Assembly: GCA_022711395.1 (NCBI GenBank)
Contig: JAKLFA010000001.1
Location: 3,277 to 67,276 of the forward strand
Length of the DNA: 64,000 nt
DNA from: Candidatus Omnitrophota bacterium
GTDB lineage: Bacteria > Omnitrophota > Gorgyraeia > Zapsychrales > JANLHA01
Reading direction: 5' to 3'
The notes under the pieces were generated by a model, which ran no database searches, had not been told where the DNA came from, and saw nothing but the letters and a program-made list of their open reading frames with translations. The position numbers and the translations under genes were made by a program. Every line of letters starts with the position of its first letter. The stretch's first letter is position 1. Shown here in pieces: positions 15,214 through 49,823 of the stretch.

Positions 15214-15289
<76 letters not shown>

Positions 15290-15982: not shown

Positions 15983-16021
15983 GTAAATAAGTTTTAATAA
16001 AGGTTCAATAAGAAATTCAAG

Positions 16022-16094
16022 GCCGACGTAGCTCAGATGGTAGAGCAGCGCATTCGTAATGCGCGGGCCGGGGGTTCGATTCCTCTCGTCGGCT
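16022..16094 (+). tRNA. tRNA-Thr (CGT)
   Basis: Acceptor gccgacg/cgtcggc, D arm gctcagatggtagagc, anticodon stem gcgca/tgcgc with loop ttCGTaa, T loop ttcgatt. No encoded CCA. A T-run follows. Confidence 0.75.
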
Positions 16095-16375
16095 TTTTAT
16101 TTTTTGATAAACGGCAGTTGCTGTTATGCGTTAAGGGCCTTTATTTGACGTAAACGATGGTCTTGAAATTCCCAGAAACTTATTGTTCAGCCGCATTTTT
16201 CGAACGCCGTCCGGCGCCCCATCGCAGTTCTGCATCGTTGTGCTCAGCGGCCCACATTGCTCGGAAAAGAAATTTCTGCGAAAAGATAAAATTCGAGATA
16301 AATCCGTTTAAAGCGACCGGAAAATGTTAGAATGAACATCAGAAACAACGATCCATTCAGAAAACGGTTTATGCT

Positions 16376-31641: not shown

Positions 31642-31718
<77 letters not shown>

Positions 31719-37364: not shown

Positions 37365-37512
37365 ATCATAGTATATTAGATGCGCGCTTTTCCAGTAAAT
37401 TCATTATGGGCTCATAATTTCAGGAAGCAATTTTTATTCCAAGTTGACAATTTTTGCCGGAACATGTATTGTTCTTAAGAAGACCGTGGAACGTAATCTA
37501 GGCAGGGCTGTT

Positions 37513-38427
37513 ATGGGTCACTCACACGAGCATCGGGTCATTGAAGAGGAGTTCAGGGAACTGTTTGACCTTGCTGATCAGGTAAGGGATTGTGTCGACG
37601 GGCTTTTAGAAACTTTTAATGAGAGAGAAACAAAACTTTTTGACCTGTCCGCCGCAAGGCGGATTTTTTTGTTTATCCTGACCAGGTCCATCAAAACGTA
37701 TTCGTCGATCGTGGTCCTGTGCCGGCGCGGATACGGCCAGGACGTGGCGACCCTGTTGCGCGGGCTTCTGGAGAATCTGGTCACTGCTGAATATATCCTT
37801 TATGATCCGAAGCATGCCAATCATTTGGCGGCCCGTTTTGTGGCCTACAAGTGGATCATTTTTAAGCGCGCGCTTCCGGAACAGGAGAGGCTGATCAAGG
37901 ACGCCCCCGAGGAACGTCAGAAGGAATTTGACCGCCGCAAGGCCGTTGTGATGGAACATGTTAATGATTTCAAGAAAAAATTCAAAGTCACATCGGATCG
38001 CGCGCTGATCACCTGGTCGGGCAAGACCGTGCGTGATATGGCCAAACATGTCAGCGCGGAGCTTTTGGCGGAATATGATGAAACGTTCCGTCAATGTTCT
38101 AAATTTTCCCATCCCAGTATTCTTGGAGACCAGGAATACATGGTCCGGGACAGCAAGAATCTTATCTTTTCTCCGCAACCTTCCGAGATCGGGGTCGCGA
38201 TCAACCTGAAACAGGCGATCAAATATTTTTTGGAATTTGCTGACCTGGTCAATGAGCAGTTTGATCTTAACAGAAAGGTTTTAATTGACCGTCTTCGTCA
38301 GCAGTGGTCCGGCCTTCAGGGAAATCCGCTCAAATCAGACGGGCTCGCCCTTGTCCAGTCGAAAGAAGCGATCCCTATTCGGGATTGCACCGTTGTGTTT
38401 AAGACCAATGGAAAAGTCCGTTCCTAG
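37513..38427 (+). CDS. hypothetical cytoplasmic protein (304 aa), no recognised domain
   Basis: Clean ORF beginning MGHSHEHRVIEE. Confidence 0.45.
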   Translation: MGHSHEHRVIEEEFRELFDLADQVRDCVDGLLETFNERETKLFDLSAARRIFLFILTRSIKTYSSIVVLCRRGYGQDVATLLRGLLENLVTAEYILYDPKHANHLAARFVAYKWIIFKRALPEQERLIKDAPEERQKEFDRRKAVVMEHVNDFKKKFKVTSDRALITWSGKTVRDMAKHVSAELLAEYDETFRQCSKFSHPSILGDQEYMVRDSKNLIFSPQPSEIGVAINLKQAIKYFLEFADLVNEQFDLNRKVLIDRLRQQWSGLQGNPLKSDGLALVQSKEAIPIRDCTVVFKTNGKVRS

Positions 38428-38442
38428 AATATTAATATTTTT

Positions 38443-38499
38443 AGTATGTCCATTATTGTCATATTATGTCCAAGTATGTCCATTTTTGTCATATTGACA
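38443..38499 (+). promoter_or_regulatory. direct repeats AGTATGTCCAtt(a/t)TTGTCATATT x2, overlapping a TTGACA -35 hexamer, upstream of the AraC-family gene
   Basis: 23-nt units at 38443-38465 and 38473-38495 with an extra ATGTCCA between them. TTGACA at 38494-38499, about 90 nt before the AraC start. Confidence 0.4.
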
Positions 38500-38585
38500 G
38501 CTTGGGGCGGCAGGAGCATGATAGTCCTTACTTTGGCTTTCGGATATCCGCAAGCATATAAGTGGTTTAAGAAAAACGTGTTGCC

Positions 38586-39455
38586 ATGCGAGATAATATT
38601 CTTCTTCACTATCTGACAGGCAACAAATCCTATCACCTTTTGCGGCAGCTCATCAACACGTTCTATGGATTTGACCTGGAGCTTTTGACCCTTGAAGGTG
38701 AGTTCATTGATCCGCCTTCAGAGAGAAGGTTCCGCTCTTTTTCCGGTCTCGAGGCCCCGACACAAACACCATCATCCCGCAGGTTTTTCGATCAGGATAT
38801 CCTGCAGCAGGTCCAGGATTCCCGTCATACGTTGGTCACGGAGTGCAAGGAGAGGGGCTATAAACAGCTCTTTGTCCCTGTTCTGCAGAAACGCGACGTT
38901 GTCGGATTTGTGTTCGTCAGCGAAGACGGCAATGTCCGCCTCACAGATGCCGAGGTCCAGATCACGATAGAATTTCTCGCGGATTATATCCGCATGCTGG
39001 TCAAGACGGACCTTGAATTCATCGAATTTTTCCAGAACAAGGACATGTCGCACCAGCAGTGCGTGATCCATGATGTGATCAATTACGTCCAGGAGCATTA
39101 TCAGGAAACCCACCTGACGCTTAGGGATATCGCCAGCTGGCGGGGGATCAGTTATCATTATCTCAGCTCGTTGTTTAAAAAAGAGATCAAGATGCCGTTC
39201 AAAACATACTTGACCCACGTGCGTCTTGAAAGGGCGGCTCATCTTTTGCAGAGCCGGCATGTGCCTGTGGGCCAGGTCGCCCGTGAATGCGGGTTCGAGG
39301 ACCCGGGCTATTTCAGCAAGGCCTTCAAGCGCCAAACTGGCCTTTCCCCTTTGGCCTACCGCGAACATCCGGTGCAAGTTAAGACGCATTCCGCAAAAGG
39401 CTTCCAATGCGCGCTTTCCAAATACGGGATCAGCTGTAAAAAGAACCGTCGGTAA
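38586..39455 (+). CDS. AraC/XylS-family transcriptional regulator
   Basis: C-terminal twin HTH (TLRDIASWRGISYHYLSSLFKKE...VGQVARECGFEDPGYFSKAFKRQTGLSPLAYRE). Confidence 0.8.
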   Translation: MRDNILLHYLTGNKSYHLLRQLINTFYGFDLELLTLEGEFIDPPSERRFRSFSGLEAPTQTPSSRRFFDQDILQQVQDSRHTLVTECKERGYKQLFVPVLQKRDVVGFVFVSEDGNVRLTDAEVQITIEFLADYIRMLVKTDLEFIEFFQNKDMSHQQCVIHDVINYVQEHYQETHLTLRDIASWRGISYHYLSSLFKKEIKMPFKTYLTHVRLERAAHLLQSRHVPVGQVARECGFEDPGYFSKAFKRQTGLSPLAYREHPVQVKTHSAKGFQCALSKYGISCKKNRR

Positions 39456-39646
39456 AAATTCCCATTCTTTCACAACTTCCTCCATTGCCAAAAACAGGAT
39501 CTTTGCTAAATTAGCGGATACTTGAGCGGGCGGATTCAGCGTCCGTTCTAAAAGAAAATCGGCAAGTTGATGTTTTTCCGTCGAGAAAAATTAAAAATGG
39601 ATCAGCCATGATTTTCGATACTCAAACCATAAAACGCGCGACAATC

Positions 39647-39686
39647 CAAAACCACCGGTTCGTTTCTGCAACCGGTGGTTTTTTGT
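39647..39686 (+). terminator. Rho-independent terminator
   Basis: aaaccaccggtt-cgtttctgc-aaccggtggttt followed by TTTTTGTTTGT. Confidence 0.65.
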
Positions 39687-39848
39687 TTGTCTGGCGAAAG
39701 GAGGTGGTGCCGGCACACAGATAAACGAGGCAGACGCAGGGCACATGCGGGTCAGGGTTAATGCTGAAAGGGATTTCAGCGCCCACCAGAACAATTCATG
39801 TGCCGAAAACGAAACAGATGTTTAATTTTTAAAACACAGGATTGAACC

Positions 39849-42101
39849 ATGAAAAAACTCACATCATTATTAATAATTTTTTTGATCCTGTCATTCGTGG
39901 CATACCCGATCCCCTCATTTGCTGAGGGAGTTGCTTTATCAGATGAGGAGATGGACCAGATCGCCGCCGGCGAATGGGTCTTTGCCAAGAATAACGGGCC
40001 GGTGAAAAAGAATTCACTGGAAGTCAACAGCGAGGCTCAGAGTGAACTTAAAGGGGTAAGCAACGCCAACACGGTCGATTCCGCTGTTGCCGGACAATAC
40101 AACGTTTCCAATGCGACGGAAGGCGTTGTGGATGTCAGCCAGGGCAACACGGCGAACGTGACGAACTCGGCGGTCACTCCTGACACCAGTTCATTCAAAG
40201 CTGTTGTCAATGAAACAACAGCGGTCGAGGAAACAACCAGCAATCAGCGCAATGACGTCGTGTCTTTCGGTGAGACCAAGACTAACGATAAGAGCGTGAC
40301 GTATAGTGACGTTGAGACCCTTGATGCCAGCTATTCCAAGACGGACACATTCCATTTGGAAGAGAGCGACAGCAAGACAAAAACATACGACATGGACCAG
40401 AAAGACACGTATTCATCGACAAAGGACAAATCTTCTTCTGAGGACAGTTCTCTGTCCGCTTCCTTTAGCGATGATAAGGCGTTTTCTGCCAGCTCCAGCA
40501 AGAATGTCGCCGCTGAGCACGCGGAAAGCGATACGTTCGATCTGAACAAATCCGATCAAGAAGCGTCAGAAAAGCACGCGACGGACAGCTCTTCATTCAG
40601 CGCGAACTTGGACGCAAGTGAAACAAAGTCCAAGAGCGATGATGAAAGCTTCTCCGCGGAGCACGCCTCAAGTGATACGTTCGATCTGAACAAGTCCGAT
40701 CAAGAGGCCTCCAGCAAGAGCGCGACACAGAATGAATCGTTCAGCGCCAGTTTGGATGCCAGCGAAACAAAGGCGAAGAGCGAAGATGAAAGTTTCGCTG
40801 CTGAGCATGCTTCAAGTGACACGTTCGATCTGAACAAATCTGATGAAGAGGCTTCATCATATTCAAGTTCGGATAATGAGCAGTCAGCCCTGTCTGTGAG
40901 CGCCAATGCCAGCAAGACAGAAGATGAAGCGATCAGCAAAGAAGCTTCTTTTACGGATAATTCCACGCAGGAGAACTCATCGACATCAACAGCATCTTCT
41001 GTTGTGGTTTCGGGTCCTGCTGAAGGCGAAACAGAGGTTTCTGGAGTGGCCGAAACCACTTTGGAGGCTTCAGCTGAAGACTCTGGAAGCGCTTCAGCGG
41101 CTACTTCTACAAACGAGTCAGCCAGCGCCGAGAGCCATGAGGGCTTGAGTGCGGCCGGCAGCTTCTCCAAGACCGAGAGCGAAACAAAGGACGCGTCCTT
41201 CGCGCTTGAAGGAAGCTCTTCGGATGTTGAATCCAAGGACAAGACATCAAGCGATAACGAATCGCTGGTGATCTCCTCCAATGAGCAGGCTTCGGGATCG
41301 GTCAGCAAGACAGATTCAGAGAGCTATGACAGCTCGAAGGCTCTGTCAGCCGGTGTTGATGCCTCTGCGTCAAAGACCTACGATTCTGAGAAGAGCGACA
41401 ACGAATCATTGGTGATCTCCTCCAATGAGCAGGCTTCGGGATCGGTCAGCAAGACAGATTCAGAGAGCTATGACAGCTCGAAGGCTCTGTCAGCCGGTGT
41501 TGATGCCTCTGCGTCAAAGACCTACGATTCCGCCAAGAGCGATAATGAATCATTGGTGATCTCTTCCGATGAACAGTCTTCGGGCTCGTTCAGCAAGGAT
41601 GAGGCGTCCAATGTTGATGCAACTTCGAATGTCGCGGCCAACTTGGATGCTTCGCATTCGGAGGCGGACAGCTACAGCTCAACCAAGAACAGCGATGAGA
41701 GCTACGTCGAAGCCAAGAGCTACGATGCGGCCAGCTCAAAGCTGATCGATAAAGATGAGAGCTCAGAAGGCTCGATCTCAGCAAGTAAGGATAAATCCGT
41801 TACTTACGATGATGTGAAGACCAAAGAGAAGACGGCGAGCGTGGATCATTCAGAAACTGACACGCACACGCTGGTCGACAACTCGACCTTTGCGTCAGAG
41901 ATCGAGAAGGATGAGACGAAGCAGGGGATCGTGAAGAATAAACTTCTGATCACCAATACATCGCAGAAGAATCTGACCGTCGTCAGCAACCTGAACGCCG
42001 TTGCATCCGCGACAGCGATCCAGGCCAACGTTGCCAATGCCAATACCGTGTCCGGGAACCTGACACAGGCCAACGTCGCGACGATCGTGAACGGGTTCTA
42101 A
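39849..42101 (+). CDS. secreted, extremely acidic Ser/Asp/Glu-rich repeat protein (candidate exported substrate A of the C39/outer-membrane-barrel cluster)
   Basis: Sec signal peptide MKKLTSLLIIFLILSFVAYPIPSFA. Then LSDEEMDQIAAG, a double-glycine-leader-like motif. About 650 aa of low-complexity S/D/E/T/K sequence with 47-48-aa tandem repeats. N/Q-rich C-terminal module ...TSQKNLTVVSNLNAVASATAIQANVANANTVSGNLTQANVATIVNGF. Confidence 0.7.
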   Translation: MKKLTSLLIIFLILSFVAYPIPSFAEGVALSDEEMDQIAAGEWVFAKNNGPVKKNSLEVNSEAQSELKGVSNANTVDSAVAGQYNVSNATEGVVDVSQGNTANVTNSAVTPDTSSFKAVVNETTAVEETTSNQRNDVVSFGETKTNDKSVTYSDVETLDASYSKTDTFHLEESDSKTKTYDMDQKDTYSSTKDKSSSEDSSLSASFSDDKAFSASSSKNVAAEHAESDTFDLNKSDQEASEKHATDSSSFSANLDASETKSKSDDESFSAEHASSDTFDLNKSDQEASSKSATQNESFSASLDASETKAKSEDESFAAEHASSDTFDLNKSDEEASSYSSSDNEQSALSVSANASKTEDEAISKEASFTDNSTQENSSTSTASSVVVSGPAEGETEVSGVAETTLEASAEDSGSASAATSTNESASAESHEGLSAAGSFSKTESETKDASFALEGSSSDVESKDKTSSDNESLVISSNEQASGSVSKTDSESYDSSKALSAGVDASASKTYDSEKSDNESLVISSNEQASGSVSKTDSESYDSSKALSAGVDASASKTYDSAKSDNESLVISSDEQSSGSFSKDEASNVDATSNVAANLDASHSEADSYSSTKNSDESYVEAKSYDAASSKLIDKDESSEGSISASKDKSVTYDDVKTKEKTASVDHSETDTHTLVDNSTFASEIEKDETKQGIVKNKLLITNTSQKNLTVVSNLNAVASATAIQANVANANTVSGNLTQANVATIVNGF
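40513..40860 (+). repeat. about 2.5 diverged tandem copies of a ~141-bp (47-aa) intragenic repeat
   Basis: AEHA(E/S)SDTFDLNKSD(Q/E)EAS...SFSA(N/S)LDASETK(S/A)KS(D/E)DESF(S/A) is repeated. Confidence 0.8.
41254..41600 (+). repeat. near-perfect 144-bp (48-aa) tandem repeats, 2 full copies plus a partial third
   Basis: Copies 41254-41397 and 41398-41541 differ at about 6 nt and share a perfectly identical core longer than 110 bp (SDNESLVISSNEQASGSVSKTDSESYDSSKALSAGVDASASKTYDS). Confidence 0.9.
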
Positions 42102-42130
42102 TAACGTTGTATTTGTATTCGTATAAGGCG

Positions 42131-42157
42131 CAAGAGGGGAGGGACCCCCTCCCCTCT
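42131..42157 (+). promoter_or_regulatory. GC-rich hairpin between substrate genes A and B (possible attenuator or processing site)
   Basis: agaggggaggg-acc-ccctcccctct, a perfect 11-bp stem with no T-run after it. Confidence 0.4.
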
Positions 42158-42189
42158 GCACCTCTAAAATTATAAGGAGCACGGAGGTT

Positions 42190-43179
42190 TTGCTGGCCGT
42201 GAAGAAGACCATGAACACATCTGTCAAGATCATAGCCTTTTCCATCCTTCTGCCATTTTCATGTTCAACGCTTTCGTACGCCGGAATGGCCAGGGTCATG
42301 AGCGATTATGAGCTTGACCAAGTGCACGCCGGCGGGTTGAACCTTGATTTTGACAAATTTCTTGGGTCCTTTTCGAGTGCCTCGGACACCGTTTCCAAAG
42401 GAGGGGTTACGGATACGGCGGCGGTCTTAAGCAGCCCGATCGTGATCGATAATAACGGAAAGAAAGTCCAGATCGTTGAGATCAAGGCGCCGAACACTCC
42501 GAAATTACCGAATATGCCTGTTGCGCCGACGGCCCCGACTACGGCCGGCAGCCTGCAGCAGGATCTTCCGGATGTGCCGGATGTGCCAGACGTGCCTGTC
42601 CCGGAAGTGAATGTGGCGTTAGCCACGGTTCCGGAGGCAACACGGTCCGCTTCACCGGATATTACGGTTGTGGATACCGCCTCGTCCGCGGTATTGGGCG
42701 CGACGTCAGATCTGGCGAATATCGTGCCGACGGTCCCGGTGACCGCGGCAAATGTTCCGGATGGGAGCGCCGCGGCAAATTCTGCGCCGTTGACCAACAG
42801 TGCGGCATCGGCGGTATCTTCTCCGACGGTCCCGACATCTCCGGTGGCTCCGACCGCACCGCAGGCTCCGGCGTCTCCGGTCATGCGGTTTGATGTGGTC
42901 GCAGGCCAGCAGAACGGAAAATTCGCGGTTGCGGTGAGCGATCAATCGGTTGGCGCAGCCGGAGCTCCGCTGTTTACGGCATCAAGCCCGGGATCCCAGA
43001 ACTTTTTGAATGTGACGGATACGGCTCAGCAGAATCTTGAGGCCCTGGTCAATGTGAACGCCGCCGGGAGCGTCGTGCCGGTCCAATTGAATTTGACGGT
43101 TTTGGTCAACTCAAACATTGAAAATTTGAATCTTTCGAATCAGTTGGATCTGAACAGTTTTTCAACATATCAATTTTGA
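42190..43179 (+). CDS. secreted Pro/Thr/Ala/Val-rich protein sharing N- and C-terminal motifs with substrate A (candidate substrate B)
   Basis: Signal peptide (KIIAFSILLPFSCSTLSYA), then MSDYELDQVHAGG, which matches the LSxxELxxIxGG double-glycine leader consensus. DVPDVPDVPV and a PT-rich linker. C-terminus TAQQNLEALVNVNAAGS...NLTVLVNSNIENLNLSNQLDLNSFSTYQF. The start is ambiguous (TTG 42190, GTG 42199 or ATG 42211). Confidence 0.6.
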   Translation: MLAVKKTMNTSVKIIAFSILLPFSCSTLSYAGMARVMSDYELDQVHAGGLNLDFDKFLGSFSSASDTVSKGGVTDTAAVLSSPIVIDNNGKKVQIVEIKAPNTPKLPNMPVAPTAPTTAGSLQQDLPDVPDVPDVPVPEVNVALATVPEATRSASPDITVVDTASSAVLGATSDLANIVPTVPVTAANVPDGSAAANSAPLTNSAASAVSSPTVPTSPVAPTAPQAPASPVMRFDVVAGQQNGKFAVAVSDQSVGAAGAPLFTASSPGSQNFLNVTDTAQQNLEALVNVNAAGSVVPVQLNLTVLVNSNIENLNLSNQLDLNSFSTYQF

Positions 43180-43229
43180 TGGCCGGTTGACGCAGTGTAG
43201 AGAGTTTCCGATCATCTAGAAAATGAGCA

Positions 43230-43925
43230 ATGAATATCCGCGCACTCTATACGTCTATTCTAACCGTTGCCTTTTTGATGTGCCACATTCCTATTGCTTC
43301 TGCCGCGACATTTAACGTCGCGGGGGTCCGGTTAACAAAAGACGTGAAACCGCTCCGGGAGATCAAACGAAGCAACGTTATTTCGCAGAGCCTGGATTTC
43401 AGCTGTGGGGCCGCAGGCCTTTCGACCCTCCTGAATTTTTATTTAAATGACGAAGTCAGCGAGCAGGAAATTATTGAAACGCTGTTAACGGTGGTCCCTA
43501 TCGAGAAAGTCCGCCAGCGCAAAGGGTTTTCATTGTTCGACCTAAAGACATTCGCTGAAAATCGCGGGTATAAGGTCACCGGTTATCAAATGGATTTTGA
43601 ATTTTTAAAGAACCTGGATGCGCCGGTCCTTGTTCCGATTCATTTCAGGAACTACAGCCATTTTGTCGTTGTGAGGGGGGTCGTAGGGGACAGGGTCTTC
43701 ATCGCGGATCCGGCGGCGGGCAATATGTCGATGAAGATCGATCAGTTCGAACGGGTCTGGGCCGGCGGGATCGGGCTGGTTGTTGAGCATCAATCTCCGG
43801 ACAGGGACCAGCGTTACGCCCTGCAGATCGAAGAGGACGACCTTCTTGTCGCGGACTATAAACATTTAAATAAGATCATGAACCAAATGATGGTGAGGAC
43901 AGCTGTATTTCCCTCAGAATATTAA
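43230..43925 (+). CDS. standalone secreted peptidase C39-family (bacteriocin-processing-type) cysteine peptidase
   Basis: Signal peptide MNIRALYTSILTVAFLMCHIPIASA. Catalytic-motif contexts are Q/Cys in ISQSLDFSCGAAGLSTLLNFY, His in NYSHFVVVRGV, and Asp in FIADPAAG. No ABC transporter domain is attached. Confidence 0.75.
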   Translation: MNIRALYTSILTVAFLMCHIPIASAATFNVAGVRLTKDVKPLREIKRSNVISQSLDFSCGAAGLSTLLNFYLNDEVSEQEIIETLLTVVPIEKVRQRKGFSLFDLKTFAENRGYKVTGYQMDFEFLKNLDAPVLVPIHFRNYSHFVVVRGVVGDRVFIADPAAGNMSMKIDQFERVWAGGIGLVVEHQSPDRDQRYALQIEEDDLLVADYKHLNKIMNQMMVRTAVFPSEY

Positions 43926-43958
43926 CAACAACGCCTGGTCGAAAGAGGGGGGAACACA

Positions 43959-45350
43959 ATGCCAAAGAGCAGAACTTCAATAAGCCGGACAGCCTTTCTC
44001 ATTGTGGCGGTCATTGCCGGACTGGTCATCTTGAATCATCGGAACCAGCAGAAAATCATCCGGGACATGCGCGCTCAGATCAAAAAGGAATTGAAGATTG
44101 AACAGGCCCCGATCATTGAGCAGATGGTCAAAGACGAGGTCCGCAGGGTCTATGATGAAGAATTGGCGAAACACGCCACATCCGGGCTGCTGCTTTCAAA
44201 GGCCGGTCAGCCCGCTGACGAGGGTGAGACTTTAGACGAGGCGATCCATCGCATTGTATGGGAGGTTTACGCCGCAGAAGTTGAGGCCCGCAAGGCTTCC
44301 GGTGAAGTGGGCATCGCTTCCGACAGTGTTCTGGATGCGCATGTCGCCGGGGCGGGGATCGATCCGGACACGGCCATTCAAGGGGGATTCATCAAAAAGC
44401 CGGCGCTGGAGCCGGCATACCGTTTAGCCAAGGCTGCCGGAGACGCAGCGCCGGAATCATCGGATGAGATGGCCGTTGATGCAGGAGAAGGAGTGGAGCG
44501 GCCTGAATCGATCGAGCGGACCATGCAACAGAAGGGCAGCGTGCTGCTTCCCAAGGGCAAGCGCATTTTTGAGCCGAGTTTTACTTACGCTCATTTTTCC
44601 ACTAACCGTATCAATATTCAGGGCGTGACGATCCTGGATGTGTTTACCATCGGGCCTGTTTCCACGCAAAAGATACAGCGCGACATGTTCATTCAGACCT
44701 TCGGGTTCAAATATGGGCTGGCGGATAATTTGCAGGGAGACTTGCGTATTCCGTTCAGATATGAATTTGACCGGATCAGTAACAGTGATCAGACGGCTGA
44801 AGAGACCCGCAGCAAGGGCGGTTTGGGCGATATTGACGTGAGCGTTTCCCGGCAGATCGGATGGGAAGAGGGGTGGAAGCCGGATCTGATCGCGTCTTTG
44901 GGCGTGAAGTCAAATACCGGTAAACCGATCTATAACAACAGCATTGGTCTGGGGACAGGGCATTGGGCTGTGCGTGGGTCTCTGGTCGCGGCCAAATCCA
45001 GCGATCCGGCGGTCGTCTTCGGGAGTTTAAATTATATCCATAGTTTTAAACGCAGTTTCTCGAACTATGGGGAGATCGATCCCGGTGATACGATCGGTTA
45101 TAGTTTGGGCATGGCTCTTGCGTTAAGCTATCAGACGGCGATCAATTTTTCATTTGATCAGAGCTTCACACAAAAGCTCAAACGCGGCGGTGAAGCGGTG
45201 GTGGGTTCTTTTGTCAATTCCGCCAATTTTAAGACAGGCTTAAACTGGGCGTTGAGCGAGCGGGCTTCCGTGGATGTCAGCGCATCGGTCGGTTTGACGG
45301 AAGATTCCCCGGACTTTGCGGTTGAAGTCCGCGTTCCGGTGTATTTTTAA
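43959..45350 (+). CDS. outer-membrane beta-barrel protein with N-terminal coiled-coil and disordered linker (FapF-like architecture)
   Basis: N-terminal anchor/signal, a helical heptad region (IRDMRAQIKKELKIEQAPIIEQMVKDEVRRVYDEELAKH), an Ala/Pro/Glu-rich linker, then about 270 aa with alternating amphipathic beta-strand pattern ending in the OMP C-terminal signature ...VEVRVPVYF. Confidence 0.65.
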   Translation: MPKSRTSISRTAFLIVAVIAGLVILNHRNQQKIIRDMRAQIKKELKIEQAPIIEQMVKDEVRRVYDEELAKHATSGLLLSKAGQPADEGETLDEAIHRIVWEVYAAEVEARKASGEVGIASDSVLDAHVAGAGIDPDTAIQGGFIKKPALEPAYRLAKAAGDAAPESSDEMAVDAGEGVERPESIERTMQQKGSVLLPKGKRIFEPSFTYAHFSTNRINIQGVTILDVFTIGPVSTQKIQRDMFIQTFGFKYGLADNLQGDLRIPFRYEFDRISNSDQTAEETRSKGGLGDIDVSVSRQIGWEEGWKPDLIASLGVKSNTGKPIYNNSIGLGTGHWAVRGSLVAAKSSDPAVVFGSLNYIHSFKRSFSNYGEIDPGDTIGYSLGMALALSYQTAINFSFDQSFTQKLKRGGEAVVGSFVNSANFKTGLNWALSERASVDVSASVGLTEDSPDFAVEVRVPVYF

Positions 45351-45513
45351 GTTAAAAATATTATGATAAGCAGATATTTCCCGGCTCCTCTTCTTTGGGG
45401 GGCCGGGTTTTCTTTTAAGGATATTTTTTTGTGATTGCTTAAATATTAGTGATAAACTAAACAGCATAAAAGAAGGCCGGTTTTCAGGTCCGTGATCTTG
45501 CCTGGAGGATGCG

Positions 45514-45789
45514 ATGATTGCATTGATCAAAGGTGCGGCGATCGGGTTTTTGATGACATTTTCGTTTGTTTTTCTGCTTTTGCTGGCGGAGACGAAATTT
45601 TTATGGCGCTACATGGATCTTTCGGAGGGTCTGCGTGTTTGTTTCGGGTCCGTTCCAGCCGTTTTTTTAGGGGCGTTTCAATTCAGAGAAAAACGATTAT
45701 TTGGTATGGGGTTGCTTTGCGGGGTTGTGCTCGCGGGCGTGGCATGGTTTGGTTTTATCATGAGCATTTTAATATCGTTTGGGGAGTGA
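45514..45789 (+). CDS. small membrane protein (91 aa)
   Basis: Three hydrophobic segments. Preferred over the overlapping 45492 frame on composition. Confidence 0.35.
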   Translation: MIALIKGAAIGFLMTFSFVFLLLLAETKFLWRYMDLSEGLRVCFGSVPAVFLGAFQFREKRLFGMGLLCGVVLAGVAWFGFIMSILISFGE

Positions 45790-45811
45790 GGGGCCTTATA
45801 CGGGCTTGCTT

Positions 45812-48142
45812 ATGAGAAATACTGTCAGAAATTTTTTTGCGAGAATAAAAAACCGGATGATGTTCATTGCTTCGGCTTTTTTGATCGCTGCGTTTACTCT
45901 TGCCGCTGTTCATATCAAGGTCCTCTATTTCTTGCTATACAGGCCATATTCGGCTTATTTGTATCTTTCGAGTTTTTTTTATAAACAGGCGTTTTTAAAA
46001 ACGGGGCAGTTTCCGCTGTGGGACCCACTCATGATGTGCGGGATCAGTGACACATCGAACATGCCCTTTCCGCTTTCGCTTTTCAGGATCTTCACGCTTT
46101 CAGGGTTTTCGGCGATCTATTCGGTGTTCTTGACCGAACTTTTTTTCACGGTCATGGGAGCCGTGTTTTTTTATCTTTTGATGCGGGTTTATCGATGTTC
46201 CAGGCCGGTGGCCCTTTTGGGAACATTCCTCTATATATTTTGGCTTTATAAATGGAATGTGTCTGAAGGTTATCCTATGGCTTTGGCACCGGCGGTCTTT
46301 TATGCCGTCCAGAAATATGAATTGACCTTAAAATACAAATATATTTTTTTAGGGGCGGTGGCCGTCGGCGTGACCTGTCTCACGGGGATCATTCACGCTG
46401 TTGCCGTGATTTTTTTGTTCCATATGGTGGTGATCGCGTGCTTTTTGAAACAAAGGGTTTTTTGGAAATACTGTCTGGCCGGGTTTTTGTCTTGGGGCCT
46501 GGGATTTATACTGGCGTTGCCGTCCCTTGTTCCGCAGGTCAAGGATCTGCCGGAAAGTCAGCGGATCTTTTACGCCAAAGGCATGTTTGATTTCGCGAAT
46601 TTAGACTGGTCGAAATTCTGGCTAAGGTTCAATGAGGTCCTTCAGTTGTTCCCGTTCTCACCCGTATTCATGTTCTGTTTTGTTCTGGCCTTCCTTTCGA
46701 TCTTTTTCCTGAAAGACCAAAAGTTGAGGACGGTTTTTTATGTGTCCGTGGGTTTTTTTGTTTTTCATATTGTTTTGAGCTTCACGCAGACCGCATGGAA
46801 GGCGCTGCCTTTGATCGGAAAGTTCATTAACGCCGTTGACCTTTATCGCTCCGCGGCTTTGACCGGTTTTATTGTCCTTTTTTTCAGCACGTATCTGATC
46901 CACGTTCTCACGGAGGCCCCGTTCGTGGCGCGCCTTAGAAGAAAAATGCTCATTTTTCTGAGCGCGATCTTTTTAACGGTTTTTTTCGCCTTCCTTTATA
47001 TGGTCGCTCTCTCGGACGCGGAATTGATCATTGCCGCTGGTTCGGGGGTGATGGCCTTTGTGTTGGTGCATGTCTTTTTTCGTCATGCGTTCTTGAGGAG
47101 AGGCTTGAGCGTTCTTTTAGTAGGGATGGTTTTTTATTACAGCGCGGTGACTGACGGGATCTTCTTCTACCGGTATTGTTATAAGATGAATATTCAAAAG
47201 AAGGGGTTTCCGTTCTTTCAGGGGGTCATGGATGATTTTTATCCCAGGACCTATTTGGGGCTTTTTGCGGATGAGCCTTCGATGTCCAGGGGCCTGGCCT
47301 GGAAGATCATGGAGGAAAATGTTGCCAGGGAACATCTTCGCGGCGCGGACATCGGTGTTTATAATTTTTACGGGAAAGTGCGTTTTTACGCTGATGGATT
47401 GAACAGCATCTACGGGGTCGCCAATATCTATCCTGCGAGGTATTACGAATTTTTTTCCTGGATGGCCAACACTTCAGCAGTTGAGGCGCCGGACGCGGCT
47501 TATGCATTTGGTATCGATTCCGAGCTTGATCCCACGCTGATGAGCCTTGCCGGGGTTGGGTGGTTGGTGACGCCTAAAGATTTTGTCAGTGATGAGCTGC
47601 GGCTTGTTTGGAAAGGGGAAAAGTACGCGCTTTACAGGAATGACAGGGTTTTTCCTCGGGCGTTCACGGTCTTTCAGTTGAACGCGTTTGATGATAAAGC
47701 GGGGCTTGAAAATTATTTGAAAGAGGCCCCGGATGGGAGCTTAAGGGCCGCGGCAGCTGTTTTGAAAGAAGAGGTGAAAGGGTTGCCCGCTGAAGCCGTA
47801 AGCGGTTCCGGCAACGGCACGGCCGCGATCACAATATACGAACCAAACCAGGTCGTAGTCGAAGCGGATTTAAATGCCGACGGTCTGCTGGTCTTAACGG
47901 ACATGTTCCATCCGAACTGGCGCGCCACTGTTGATGGAGATCCGGTTGAGATCTATCCCGCGTATCATGTGTTCCGGATGGTCGCGTTGTCTAAGGGAAA
48001 ACATACGGTCCGGTTTTTTATCAAGGATGATGCCTTCACCCTGGCGCTCTGGGCTTCTTCCGGCGCGCTGATAGGAATGGTCTTGTTCTTTTTTTGGAGA
48101 AAGAGGAAAAGCGTCTCAGAGGCAGATCAAAAAGGGAAATGA
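45812..48142 (+). CDS. large polytopic membrane protein (YfhO-like; possible glycosyl/arabinosyl-transferase-type)
   Basis: About 15 TM helices over the first ~480 aa, then a soluble C-terminal domain and a final TM (WASSGALIGMVLFFFW). The start could be 45779 or 45812. Confidence 0.5.
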   Translation: MRNTVRNFFARIKNRMMFIASAFLIAAFTLAAVHIKVLYFLLYRPYSAYLYLSSFFYKQAFLKTGQFPLWDPLMMCGISDTSNMPFPLSLFRIFTLSGFSAIYSVFLTELFFTVMGAVFFYLLMRVYRCSRPVALLGTFLYIFWLYKWNVSEGYPMALAPAVFYAVQKYELTLKYKYIFLGAVAVGVTCLTGIIHAVAVIFLFHMVVIACFLKQRVFWKYCLAGFLSWGLGFILALPSLVPQVKDLPESQRIFYAKGMFDFANLDWSKFWLRFNEVLQLFPFSPVFMFCFVLAFLSIFFLKDQKLRTVFYVSVGFFVFHIVLSFTQTAWKALPLIGKFINAVDLYRSAALTGFIVLFFSTYLIHVLTEAPFVARLRRKMLIFLSAIFLTVFFAFLYMVALSDAELIIAAGSGVMAFVLVHVFFRHAFLRRGLSVLLVGMVFYYSAVTDGIFFYRYCYKMNIQKKGFPFFQGVMDDFYPRTYLGLFADEPSMSRGLAWKIMEENVAREHLRGADIGVYNFYGKVRFYADGLNSIYGVANIYPARYYEFFSWMANTSAVEAPDAAYAFGIDSELDPTLMSLAGVGWLVTPKDFVSDELRLVWKGEKYALYRNDRVFPRAFTVFQLNAFDDKAGLENYLKEAPDGSLRAAAAVLKEEVKGLPAEAVSGSGNGTAAITIYEPNQVVVEADLNADGLLVLTDMFHPNWRATVDGDPVEIYPAYHVFRMVALSKGKHTVRFFIKDDAFTLALWASSGALIGMVLFFFWRKRKSVSEADQKGK

Positions 48143-48161: not shown

Positions 48162-49823
48162 ATGAACATGAAAAGATCAATCCAGGGTTTGAAATCAAAG
48201 ATCGGCCAAGGCGTTATTTTCGGAAATTTCAATACGCGGCAGAAAAGCCTCGAAACGCTGGGGGCTTTTGTATCAGCTATTGAAAACGCGCGGGAGGCGA
48301 TCCTGATCACATCTTCCGATACAAAGATCATTTTTGCGAATAAAGCGGTCTATAGATTGTTCGGTTATAAAAGGGAGGAGCTCATCGGGAGAACCCCGTC
48401 GATCTTTCATAAAGGACAGGATTCGGGGTTGTTGTTAAAAAAGATCTTCTCAGCCGTAAGGAAAAAGGGATTTTGGGAGGGGGAGATTGAAAGCGTTACG
48501 AAGCAGGGCAAAAGGATCCTGACGCTGGGCAGGGCCAGCTGCGTCCGAGATAAAAAAGGACGCATCGTGAATTACTTGTGCGCCCAGCATGATGTTACGG
48601 AACGCAGGCGCATCGAAGAGGACCTGCGTTTGAAGGAAGAACGATATCTTGCGATCCTGCATGGCCAGGCGGACCTGATCTCGAGGTTTAAGCCCGACGG
48701 CACGTTTATCTTTGCGAATGACGCGTATTGCAGCTTTTTCGGTAAAACTGAAAAGCAGCTTGTTGGAAAAAAGTGGTTTCCTCGGGCTTTTTCAGAAGAT
48801 CTGCCCATGATCCGGCGAAAGCTGGAAACTTTGAAGCCGGACCACCCGGAAGTTGTTGTTGAGAACCGTGTTATTTCCGCGTCCGGAGAAGTTCATTGGA
48901 TGCAGTTCGTTAACCGGGCTTTTTATGATCCAAAAGGAAGACATTTGGAAACACAGTCTGTCGGGCGTGATATTACGAGCCTTAAAAAGATGGAATTGGA
49001 ATTGAAAAGCGCCCTGGAGTGGCTTTCGTTGGCCCAGCGGCATGCCCTTATCGGCGCCTGGGACTGGGATCTGCGCACGAATCAGGTGCGATGGTCTGAT
49101 GAATACCGTTTGCTGTTCGGGCACAAGTTGGATGCGCCGGCCACGTTAAGGGGGTGGGAGAAGAAAATTCATCCCAATGACCGGGCCAAGGTCAAGGCCG
49201 CGGTAAAGAAGGTCTTAAGGGAAAAAATTCCTTACAATGTTGAATACCGCATAAAAAAGACCGCTCAGCAGATACGCTGGATCAATGGGCGGGGGGACCT
49301 GATTTTTGATGATAACGGCAGGCCCAAACGGATGGTCGGGCTTGTTATTGATATCACCGAATCACGCAAAATAGCTGAAAAACTGAAACGATCAGAACAG
49401 GAACTGCAAAAGCAGAAGGTGCTGCTTGAGCACAAAAATATCGCGTTGCAAGAACTGATCAAACAGATCGAGGTAGAGAAGGACCGTTTAAAAAAGGATG
49501 TGATGGCCAATATTGAAAAAGTCGTTCTGCCGATCCTTAGACGGCTAGGCGAAAAGGACGGCCGCAACAGGAATGTTGGGTTGATCGAAAGGCAGCTTGG
49601 CAGCATCACCTCCGAATTGGGCGGGCGGGCTGGAGAAAAATTCCTCTCTTTGGCCCCGCGGGAACGCGAGATCTCTTCGCTGGTCAAGGCGGGACAGTCA
49701 AGCAAAGAGATCGCCTCAACGCTCAAGATCTCAGTTCAGACGGTTGAAAAACATCGCAGGAATATACGAAAGAAATTAGGCCTTGTTCAGAAAAAGGTCA
49801 ACTTGACCTCTTTTTTGGAGTGA
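48162..49823 (+). CDS. PAS-domain sensor / LuxR-family (GerE HTH) transcriptional regulator
   Basis: Several PAS/PAC modules, a coiled coil, and a C-terminal LSLAPREREISSLVKAGQSSKEIASTLKISVQTVEKHRRNIRKKLGL. Confidence 0.8.
   Translation: MNMKRSIQGLKSKIGQGVIFGNFNTRQKSLETLGAFVSAIENAREAILITSSDTKIIFANKAVYRLFGYKREELIGRTPSIFHKGQDSGLLLKKIFSAVRKKGFWEGEIESVTKQGKRILTLGRASCVRDKKGRIVNYLCAQHDVTERRRIEEDLRLKEERYLAILHGQADLISRFKPDGTFIFANDAYCSFFGKTEKQLVGKKWFPRAFSEDLPMIRRKLETLKPDHPEVVVENRVISASGEVHWMQFVNRAFYDPKGRHLETQSVGRDITSLKKMELELKSALEWLSLAQRHALIGAWDWDLRTNQVRWSDEYRLLFGHKLDAPATLRGWEKKIHPNDRAKVKAAVKKVLREKIPYNVEYRIKKTAQQIRWINGRGDLIFDDNGRPKRMVGLVIDITESRKIAEKLKRSEQELQKQKVLLEHKNIALQELIKQIEVEKDRLKKDVMANIEKVVLPILRRLGEKDGRNRNVGLIERQLGSITSELGGRAGEKFLSLAPREREISSLVKAGQSSKEIASTLKISVQTVEKHRRNIRKKLGLVQKKVNLTSFLE

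Follow-up and report, generated by a model that had tools for sequence, protein, structure and literature searches.

A C39 peptidase and FapF-like channel cassette of Candidatus Omnitrophota with leader-like motifs on two candidate cargo proteins

Introduction

The locus described in this work lies in a 64,000 nucleotide stretch of DNA, referred to as the window, of a Candidatus Omnitrophota bacterium (GCA_022711395.1, contig JAKLFA010000001.1, positions 3,277 to 67,276). It comprises the genes for a standalone C39 cysteine peptidase, a FapF-like outer-membrane channel and two candidate cargo proteins, here called A and B, preceded by genes for a DUF5677 protein and an AraC-type regulator. The best studied relative is the Fap system of Pseudomonas (fapABCDEF). 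Its C39 peptidase FapD is periplasmic, and exchange of the catalytic cysteine for alanine (C38A) abolishes secretion (PMC5557850). Mature FapE is devoid of its N-terminal ~70 residues (PMC5557850), and the channel FapF is trimeric, carries a plug and takes unfolded cargo (PMC5557850, PMC6173800). The need for the FapD catalytic cysteine has been known since 2017, the substrate and its recognition sequence being left unidentified (PMC5557850, PMC6173800). Colocalised fapD and fapF genes have been reported from five further phyla outside Proteobacteria (PMC6173800); the earlier notices of the superfamily outside Proteobacteria did not cover the cargo (PMC3792158, PMC6173800).

Three further systems are of relevance. 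The Fil system, a putative pilus of Acinetobacter and Pseudomonas, pairs a periplasmic C39 peptidase (FilB) with a FapF-related barrel (FilC), and all its DUF6160 subunits have a signal peptide followed by [ML]-D-D-x-A-L-S-x-V-T-G-Q-DG. The PCATs (PCAT1, ComA, CvaB, LahT) carry a cytoplasmic C39 domain fused to an ATP-binding cassette (ABC) exporter and act on substrates without a Sec signal peptide. C39 peptidases bind an amphipathic leader helix that has hydrophobic residues at positions -4, -7 and -12, and they cleave behind a residue pair of the Gly-Gly type. In curli (CsgA/B, CsgG; type VIII secretion), Asn/Gln-rich subunits, a major one and a nucleator, are exported by Sec and then cross the outer membrane unfolded through a channel dedicated to them (see also PMC5557850).

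Results

The cassette as a candidate two-step secretion system

The operon is most readily read as encoding a member of the FapD/FapF ("Fap/Fil") superfamily, a system which would secrete two previously unclassified surface or fibre proteins across the outer membrane in two steps. We put the probability of this reading at about 0.7. The cassette belongs to the known FapD/FapF secretion class and is not a new class, and it works like Fap and Fil but is a member of neither, the equivalog cutoffs of FapD, FapF, FilB and FilC all being missed. Its features are as follows (coordinates are those of the window).

37444..38427, + strand: DUF5677 protein, 327 amino acids (aa) (Pfam DUF5677, 3e-22)
38586..39455, + strand: AraC-family transcription regulator (Pfam HTH_18, 1e-22; HTH_AraC, 3e-17)
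39456..39848, + strand: 393 nt intergenic region between the AraC gene and A, the widest gap of the cassette, presumed promoter/operator region
39849..42101, + strand: candidate cargo A, 750 aa (open reading frame list, motif, repeat and self-alignment evidence)
39936-39971, + strand: leader-like motif of A, LSDEEMDQIAAG, residues 30-41 (exact match)
40507..40856, + strand: tandem repeat 1 inside A, 144-bp unit, 2.4 copies, 79% match
41250..41597, + strand: tandem repeat 2 inside A, 144-bp unit, 2.4 copies, 93% match
42190..43179, + strand: candidate cargo B, 329 aa, TTG start (open reading frame list, homologue alignment, profile search)
42298-42336, + strand: leader-like motif of B, MSDYELDQVHAGG, residues 37-49 (exact match)
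43018..43176, + strand: C-terminal Asn/Gln-rich module of B, TAQQNLEALVNVNAAGSVVPVQLNLTVLVNSN... (alignments to A and to homologues)
43230..43925, + strand: standalone C39 cysteine peptidase, 231 aa, predicted periplasmic (Pfam PF03412, 3.7e-22)
43959..45350, + strand: FapF-like outer-membrane channel, 463 aa (NCBIfam FapF, 1.7e-39)
44319..44351, + strand: internal leader-like motif SDSVLDAHVAG in the channel linker, residues 121-131, in register with the cargo leaders
45380..45407, + strand: intrinsic terminator with an 11-bp stem (9 GC pairs) and T-tract, closing the four-gene set

All six genes of the region, taken from the open reading frame (ORF) list, are co-directional, and the four genes which a first inspection of the sequence (the original prediction) had placed behind an AraC regulator are present as described. 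The gaps between A and B, B and the peptidase, and the peptidase and the channel are 88, 50 and 33 nt. The TTG start codon of B follows a GGAG ribosome-binding site, and an alternative ATG is found seven codons in.

The C39 peptidase

The peptidase matches Pfam Peptidase_C39 over residues 48-186 with 79 bits against a cutoff of 22. The top NCBIfam matches are FilB (1.4e-37, 129.6 bits against a cutoff of 475) and FapD (1.1e-35, 123 bits against the cutoff of 330 of the equivalog model NF058616), both at sub-equivalog level; the models TIGR03796 and TIGR01193 match the peptidase segment only, far under their cutoffs. The protein aligns with the double-glycine protease domain 6mpz of PDB (1.7e-10). 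Residues Q53, C59, H144 and D160 align with the C39 domains of 6mpz, 7n87 and PCAT1, and they are invariant in an alignment of 22 members from Omnitrophota, Acidobacteriota and Thiohalobacter. The signal peptide ends in ...ASA|A, and the free 231-aa protein has no ABC transporter domains, so that the original prediction of a signal-peptide-bearing C39 peptidase with an intact Q/C/H/D site and without an ABC transporter is borne out on both counts. Past the catalytic core there is a conserved C-terminal extension of ~45 residues (..RTAVFPSEY). One partial NCBI protein, from a metagenome-assembled genome (MAG) of Candidatus Omnitrophota, matches the peptidase with 100% identity, and the close homologues are nearly all from Omnitrophota.

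The leader-like motif of A and B

Proteins A and B both carry Sec signal peptides with AxA-type signal-peptidase sites, residues 1-25 with SFA|E in A and residues 1-31 with SYA|G in B. The leader-like motif, of the common form L-S-D-x-E-[LM]-D-Q-[IV]-x-A-G, starts 5-6 residues past these sites, and both motifs are found exactly as first quoted. The leader of B may be written MSDYELDQVHAG-G (residues 37-49) and is followed by a conserved LNLDFDKFLGS box. In no other ORF of the 64-kb window does a signal peptide precede the motif. The residues have double-glycine spacing, being hydrophobic at -12, -7 and -4 and small (Ala) at -2. The same spacing is found in the leaders of colicin V (..LTLNELDSVSGG), lactococcin A (..VSDEELSEANGG) and pediocin PA-1 (..LTEKEMANIIGG).

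Residues D39, E41, L42, D43, Q44, A47 and G49 of B are invariant or at least 90% conserved in 14 homologues. Omnitrophota orthologues of A retain G-V-A-L-S-D-x-x-M-D-x-I-A-A-G-E-W together with the N-proximal and C-terminal modules described below, and the pattern AG[ED]W is kept. In A, the predicted site of C39 recognition and cleavage falls between AG and E-W. The B family has a variable motif position 12 (G 57, E 21, A 9, Q 7, R 5), followed by a Gly that hardly varies, giving V-x-A-x-G. One A orthologue (L009, 4183-6927) has the end of the leader duplicated, LTDAELDEIAAG-DEEIAAG-EWV, which results in two consecutive candidate cleavage sites.

Architecture of the candidate cargo proteins

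Protein A is composed of the signal peptide, the leader, a first copy of an Asn/Gln-rich module (residues ~51-105), acidic Ser/Asp/Glu-rich repeats and a second module copy (~697-750). In B the signal peptide and leader are followed by the short conserved box, a Pro/Ala/Thr-rich hypervariable spacer and a single C-terminal module. The C-terminal modules of A and B share 41% identity over 32 residues (E=6e-6), and the copy behind the leader of A is 40% identical to the C-terminus of the same protein over 55 residues (E=8e-9). Columns Q280..N317 of B are invariant or at least 90% conserved among the 14 homologues, and the middle of the protein is hypervariable. The module shared by A and B was thus correctly recognised at the outset; its ending in Phe, noted at the same time, is not conserved in homologues, and for this reason the C-terminal Phe was ruled out as a β-signal for the β-barrel assembly machinery. 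Likewise, the description as acidic repeat proteins fits A, with its tandem repeats and a mature isoelectric point of 4.2 (22.6% Ser), but not B, which is Ala/Val/Pro-rich with few charged residues.

Neither protein has a Pfam or NCBIfam match at E<=0.1. Long orthologues of A with the same ends are present at five Omnitrophota loci (L001, L003, L004, L009, L010), and analogous long proteins are found in Acidobacteriaceae and Gammaproteobacteria. For B, an exhaustive profile search of 1.84 billion protein representatives gave a family of 191 representatives at E<=1e-3. The leader motif is located within the first 90 residues in 116 of the 130 full-length members, and 80 of the 130 have both leader and C-terminal module. 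An AlphaFold monomer of B, made from a 15-sequence alignment, is disordered (predicted local distance difference test, pLDDT, 39.6), and in this model residues 39-48 of the leader form a helix.

The FapF-like channel and its internal motif

The channel scores 136 bits with NCBIfam FapF (NF058560, equivalog cutoff 700) and is therefore homologous but not an equivalog; it matches the PDB structure of FapF (5o65) over residues 189-463 (7e-28). Similarity to FilC is weak (54.4 bits against a cutoff of 630). The sole Pfam match is Phenol_MetA_deg (PF13557, 31.3 bits against a cutoff of 22, 2.8e-07), and COG4313/Phenol_MetA_deg channels are the parent superfamily of FapF (PMC6173800). An AlphaFold model from 57 sequences (pLDDT 80.7) has a long helix at residues 5-74 with a hydrophobic N-terminus, a helix at 92-113, a disordered low-confidence linker at 115-180, a helix at the position of the plug (183-191) and a β-barrel at 202-458. 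In a Foldseek search with this model the top 18 matches are FapF structures (E 9e-24, target TM-score 0.81-0.88), followed by the COG4313 channel 4rl8. NCBIfam, PDB, AlphaFold and Foldseek therefore agree with the initial assignment as a FapF-like barrel with a coiled-coil region and a linker, and not a porin or FadL-type protein.

The linker carries the internal leader-like motif listed above. Homologous channels have motifs such as LSDEELDRFVAG, LTDDEMDRFVAG and LSDQELDQYVAS, and a tight form is present in 30 of 56 FapF-like proteins of Omnitrophota, 0.0027 being expected per shuffled sequence. A search for the internal motif beyond this phylum covered 77 FapF-like proteins and gave one spurious match and one true match, the latter itself from Omnitrophota, so that other phyla lack the motif and it is a lineage-specific feature. 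Most Omnitrophota FapF-like proteins also have no AxA signal-peptidase site, the hydrophobic N-terminus passing directly into the charged long helix (43959-44060, residues 1-34, in the window; homologues P0133-P0218). From this arrangement, one possibility is that the N-terminus acts as an uncleaved inner-membrane signal anchor and that the peptidase severs anchor from barrel.

Two other features of these barrels were observed. A second linker box, [IL]-x-G-G-x-x-K-x-P, is located ~10-20 residues past the internal motif in many Omnitrophota channels and contains a true Gly-Gly; in the window it reads AIQGGFIKKP (residues 139-148, 44373-44400). In a subgroup of the Omnitrophota barrels (P0224, P0226-P0230, P0232, P0234) an N-terminal PF16656 domain (fibronectin-type-III-like) replaces the coiled-coil helix, so that the barrel bears another kind of periplasmic or surface module.

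Related loci across phyla

A pattern derived from the peptidase alignment was used to scan 185,579 species-representative genomes. At least 595 relatives were confirmed, which puts the peptidase family in no fewer than 595 species-level genomes; the 80 best loci among them were kept for comparison. They span about ten phyla and classes, including Omnitrophota, Acidobacteriaceae, Nitrospirota, Syntrophales, Desulfosarcina and Alpha-, Beta- and Gammaproteobacteria. At 76 of the 80 the C39 gene is accompanied by that of a FapF-like barrel, usually immediately 3' of it, and the four exceptions are cut by contig ends.

The loci were searched in six frames for h-x-[DENS]-x-x-h-x-x-h-x-[GA]-x (h, hydrophobic) with a start codon and a signal-peptide-like hydrophobic core at most 60 residues before it. 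This yielded 164 distinct ORFs with signal peptide and motif, against 11 in reversed sequences; the expression is permissive, and the control consists of the reversed-sequence null and positional clustering, not of a formal probability. Motif ORFs on the peptidase strand concentrate 0-6 kb upstream of the peptidase, where 65 of the 80 loci have at least one; in several other loci they are divergently transcribed. Homologous loci thus retain the leader motif, also beyond Omnitrophota, and retain it together with the C-terminal module, two points which the original prediction had put up for checking.

The motif comes in three flavours. The first, L-[STN]-D-x-[QE]-[LM]-D-x-V-[TS]-A-[GA], occurs in Omnitrophota, Acidobacteriaceae, Noviherbaspirillum, Methylobacter, Thermithiobacillus and Acetobacteraceae, among others. 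The second, [ML]-D-D-x-A-L-S-x-V-T-G-Q-D-G, occurs in DUF6160/FilA-like proteins of Pseudomonas, Massilia and Duganella and of the Acidobacteriota locus L007, and the FilA and DUF6160 profile matches sit exactly on the signal peptide and this motif. The third, h-x-D-x-E-L-x-x-M-R-G-[GKR], is encoded just 3' of the peptidase in FapE-family proteins (1.4e-23, 4e-17), and the profile alignment begins at the motif. The constant of the superfamily is a small residue at -2, and -1 varies.

The order DUF5677-AraC-A-B-C39-FapF is found in six other Omnitrophota loci with unrelated flanks (L001/2, L003, L004/5, L009, L010). More widely, a module near-identical to that of B, of the form AQQNLxSLININAVNSxxNVLLNLNxNINS, is encoded by the gene directly 5' of C39 at 17 of the 80 loci; these extend over Omnitrophota, Acidobacteriaceae and Gammaproteobacteria, Ectothiorhodospira, Marinobacter and MAGs among the last. 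The module gene is preceded by one for a long leader-tagged protein whose C-terminus is related. The Omnitrophota cassette is one branch of this broader unnamed A-B-C39-FapF type.

Two to three tandem cargo paralogues of 93-120 aa are located upstream of C39-FapF in Noviherbaspirillum, Methylobacter, Thermithiobacillus, Thiotrichales and Acetobacteraceae (L033 3788-4916, L053 6301-7171, L058 6585-7832, L071, L076, L078 1201-2273); they have a signal peptide followed by L-[ST]-[DE]-x-Q-M-D-x-V-[ST]-A-G, are bacteriocin-sized and rich in Ala, Ser, Thr and Gly. The Fil-like loci of Massilia (L059, L061, L068, L074, L075, L082) carry, ~+4.1 kb from C39, the gene of a ~200-aa protein with a long Ala-rich N-terminus, LSDEELGEIMAQ and a charged helical region, which may be a further substrate or an accessory factor. 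In Thiohalobacter thiocyanaticus (L006, 5179-10585) two extremely Gly-rich proteins of 371 and 313 aa have no leader, and proteins of 116 and 202 aa, the latter weakly FapE-like, have ..L-D-A-L-R-G-R and ..L-A-A-L-R-G-G motifs. The FapF-like gene of this locus is on the opposite strand and split in two ORFs, and an integrase and sigma-54 activators adjoin. This locus was considered as a canonical fap operon and judged an intermediate form (FapD 148 bits, weak FapE N-terminal match, Gly-rich cargo), and it did not serve as a reference for Fap. The Acidobacteriota Fil-like locus L007 (5263-6924) has a FadL/Toluene_X-family barrel directly 3' of the FilC-like barrel, so that Fil-type loci carry two different outer-membrane barrels.

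Comparison with described systems

With Fap the cassette shares a Sec-dependent periplasmic C39 peptidase with a catalytic cysteine beside a FapF-type plugged barrel, the N-terminal helical domain and disordered linker of that barrel, and an Asn/Gln-rich cargo. FapE-family proteins bear the same class of motif behind the signal peptide (L-x-D-x-E-L-x-x-M-R-G-[GKR]). Unlike in Fap, there is no HMM (hidden Markov model) match to FapA, FapB, FapC or FapE in the window; the FapB model recognises a true homologue in L070, so that the test of A and B against it has power. Both A and B are leader-tagged, whereas the motif was not found in the one FapB homologue examined (L070), and the short leader-bearing protein is encoded upstream of the peptidase and not downstream as in Fap. 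The internal motif of the channel, the DUF5677 and AraC accessory genes and the Omnitrophota host are features of this cassette.

FapA and FapE had been stated to be missing, which holds at the HMM level; yet the leader region of the B family aligns in hhalign with that of FapE (E=4.3e-5, probability 69%), the Omnitrophota Ala falling on the FapE Gly at -2. B was considered as a diverged FapE, and as only the leader region aligns, and not the C-terminal modules, it was not filed as such.

Compared to Fil, A and B are not DUF6160 or FilA proteins, whereas true Fil-like loci (L007, Pseudomonas/Massilia) do match these families. There is no second, FadL-type barrel as in L007, and at -2 the A/B motif has Ala where Fil has Gly. 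In the cassettes of Acidobacteriaceae and Gammaproteobacteria (Ectothiorhodospira, Marinobacter, MAGs) the genes for long leader protein, short leader protein with module, C39 and FapF-like barrel follow one another as they do here, and the leader is likewise of "x-A-G/A" flavour. They differ in a short protein of ~130-160 aa without the Pro-rich spacer and in having neither the DUF5677/AraC pair nor the internal channel motif. To our knowledge these A-B-C39-FapF cassettes are undescribed.

The PCATs have in common with the cassette the C39 fold with its Gln/Cys/His/Asp site and the leader spacing L-S-x-x-E-L-x-x-I-x-G-G. Unlike in PCAT systems, the enzyme is here free and periplasmic, the leader stands after a Sec signal peptide, and the residue at -2 is Ala with a variable -1. 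With curli the likeness is one of logic, there being no kinship in sequence or structure, no protease and no leader in that system.

The cassette had been put forward as an undescribed variant. No description of the leader motif behind the signal peptide, of the A and B families, of the internal channel motif or of the cassette was found in the literature searched, which omits most subscription journals; the superfamily itself is large, with the at least 595 genomes given above, and fapD-fapF pairs outside Proteobacteria were already known.

Accessory and neighbouring genes

The AraC protein is the presumed regulator of the operon, and a promoter-like match at 39485-39512 lies in the gap between its gene and A (consensus match only). 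The AraC gene is syntenic in all Omnitrophota loci, the copy of L004 being fused to a response-regulator receiver domain, and the DUF5677 gene is 5' of it in all six other Omnitrophota loci. The pair was not found at the non-Omnitrophota loci compared; the two are lineage-specific accessory and regulatory genes. The DUF5677 protein has no obvious signal peptide. No paralogues of A, B, C39, FapF or DUF5677 were found within the window.

Downstream of the terminator are genes for a 787-aa polytopic membrane protein with a weakly YfhO-like C-terminus (45779-48142) and for a PAS/LuxR-type regulator (48162-49823; domain call from reading the translation), neither of which is syntenic with the cassette in other Omnitrophota loci. 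Nearly all long ORFs of the window are on the + strand, GC skew is positive in every 2-kb bin and the cumulative skew rises monotonically, which fits a window located wholly on the leading strand of one replichore. Three tRNA genes were found, Phe (15214-15289), Thr (16021-16095) and Met (31642-31718, minus strand).

Discussion

Proposed mechanism

In the mechanism which we propose from the gene content, Sec would export A, B, the peptidase and the channel to the periplasm, and the signal peptides of A, B and C39 would be cut at their AxA sites. This would leave A and B with an N-terminal propeptide of ~16-18 residues, xxxxL-S-D-x-E-[LM]-D-Q-[IV]-x-A-G. The C39 peptidase would then bind this leader and cut at or next to A-G in A and A-x-G in B. 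We infer propeptide removal by the peptidase by analogy with Pseudomonas, because the catalytic residues are intact here and because in Pseudomonas the FapD cysteine is required and the FapE N-terminus is lost. Cleavage may be coupled to the hand-over of unfolded cargo to the plugged FapF-like channel, in analogy to trimeric FapF, so that leader removal would be the licensing step. As the linker of the Omnitrophota channel bears the cargo motif, the channel is probably a further docking site or substrate of the peptidase. Outside the cell the β-prone Asn/Gln modules might drive assembly: A, with a module at both ends, could polymerise head-to-tail and show its acidic Ser-rich repeats, and B, with one module, could serve as nucleator, cap or anchor; this last part is speculative. 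Candidate peptides for assays of the peptidase are EGVALSDEEMDQIAAGEWVFAKN and GMARVMSDYELDQVHAGGLNLDFDK from the cargo and GIASDSVLDAHVAGAGIDPDT from the channel.

Alternative explanations

Several observations weigh against export of A and B by leader-guided processing. No similarity of A and B as whole proteins to FapB, FapC or FapE was detected, and their C-terminal modules do not align to FapE. The motif had been identified as the LSxxELxxIxGG consensus with Ala at -2; the spacing stands, but curated HMMs of double-glycine leaders and bacteriocins (NCBIfam, Pfam) gave nothing significant with the leaders of A and B (best E=0.15, LSEI_2386 family), so that the label "double-glycine leader" is founded on consensus spacing and genomic context. 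The variable -1 of the B family with an invariant Gly one residue later makes the scissile bond ambiguous, and the specificity must differ from that for canonical Gly-Gly. Conservation runs past the putative cut (GLNLDFDxFLGS in B, EWV in A), and the segment could thus be a folded or docking element instead of a discarded propeptide. Since AlphaFold gives B no confident fold, "amyloid-like" is a compositional analogy only.

The conservation past the cut and the variable -1 residue would suit a motif that is never cleaved and serves as a targeting or chaperone-docking signal, with the peptidase holding the cargo unfolded and delivering it to the channel, like the dead C39-like domains of HlyB-type transporters; the ~45-residue C-terminal extension of the peptidase (..RTAVFPSEY) could be the docking element. 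True C39-like chaperone domains lose the Cys, whereas Gln, Cys, His and Asp are invariant across this family; moreover FapD C38A abolishes secretion and the N-terminus of FapE is gone from the mature protein (PMC5557850), and we regard an uncleaved signal as improbable. About equally improbable, and if anything slightly more so, is that the C39 substrate is the channel itself, a cut at the linker motif severing the N-terminal coiled coil, which may be anchored in the inner membrane, from the barrel and so maturing or gating it, with the cargo motifs merely competing or targeting elements. The in-register linker motif of more than half of the Omnitrophota channels and the missing AxA site of most of them, whose hydrophobic N-terminus merges into the long helix, point in this direction, and processing of the FapF linker by FapD has been suggested before (Rouse 2017, PMC5557850). 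The internal motif is, however, absent in all other phyla sampled and the cargo motif is universal, so that the peptidase cannot have started out as a channel-processing enzyme. That it acts on the channel alone is unlikely; that it does so in addition to acting on the cargo, the two being compatible, has appreciably better prospects, although we would still bet against it.

A last explanation dispenses with protein export altogether and takes the barrel for a COG4313/Phenol_MetA_deg uptake channel for hydrophobic compounds, with A, B and C39 as unrelated neighbours. It would account for the only Pfam match of the barrel and for 4rl8 as its next-best structural match. FapF scores far above COG4313, however, and the N-terminal helix, the linker and the helix at the plug position are FapF-specific; the C39-barrel pairing is maintained across phyla with leader-bearing neighbours, and C39 peptidases have not been reported beside COG4313-type uptake channels (PMC6173800). 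We consider this explanation very improbable, and the two-step secretion of A and B is retained as the preferred reading.

A possible periplasmic leader code

A more general proposal, to which we give a little less than an even chance, is that of a "periplasmic leader code" which would define a widespread two-step secretion pathway. A double-glycine-type leader, h-x-D-x-x-[LM]-x-x-h-x-[G/A]-x, directly behind the Sec signal peptide would mark every cargo of FapD/FapF-type systems, and a free periplasmic C39 peptidase would remove this mark to license translocation. The code would cover FapE in Fap, the DUF6160 pilin-like proteins in Fil, and A and B here and in Acidobacteriota and Gammaproteobacteria. 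In Omnitrophota the channel is also tagged and may be freed from a putative inner-membrane signal anchor by the same cut. The Omnitrophota cassette is the clearest form, having a near-canonical double-glycine leader right after the Sec signal peptide on both cargos, and the same class of motif accompanies this peptidase family in Omnitrophota, Acidobacteriota, Nitrospirota, Desulfobacterota and Alpha-, Beta- and Gammaproteobacteria, the FapE-family and Fil/DUF6160 proteins included.

Omnitrophota are ultra-small and probably host-dependent bacteria. For this phylum the cassette represents a candidate surface-fibre or adhesin system, on which the main genomic survey of these bacteria is silent (PMC10066038). 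If the leader code is true, the long-sought substrate of FapD and its recognition rule would be identified, and leader-guided C39 processing would extend from the cytoplasm, where it belongs to type I/PCAT export, to the periplasm. Most of the loci concerned are annotated merely as "C39 family peptidase" and "transporter"; the question of the FapD substrate becomes directly testable, and there is a sequence rule for finding the cargo in genomes.

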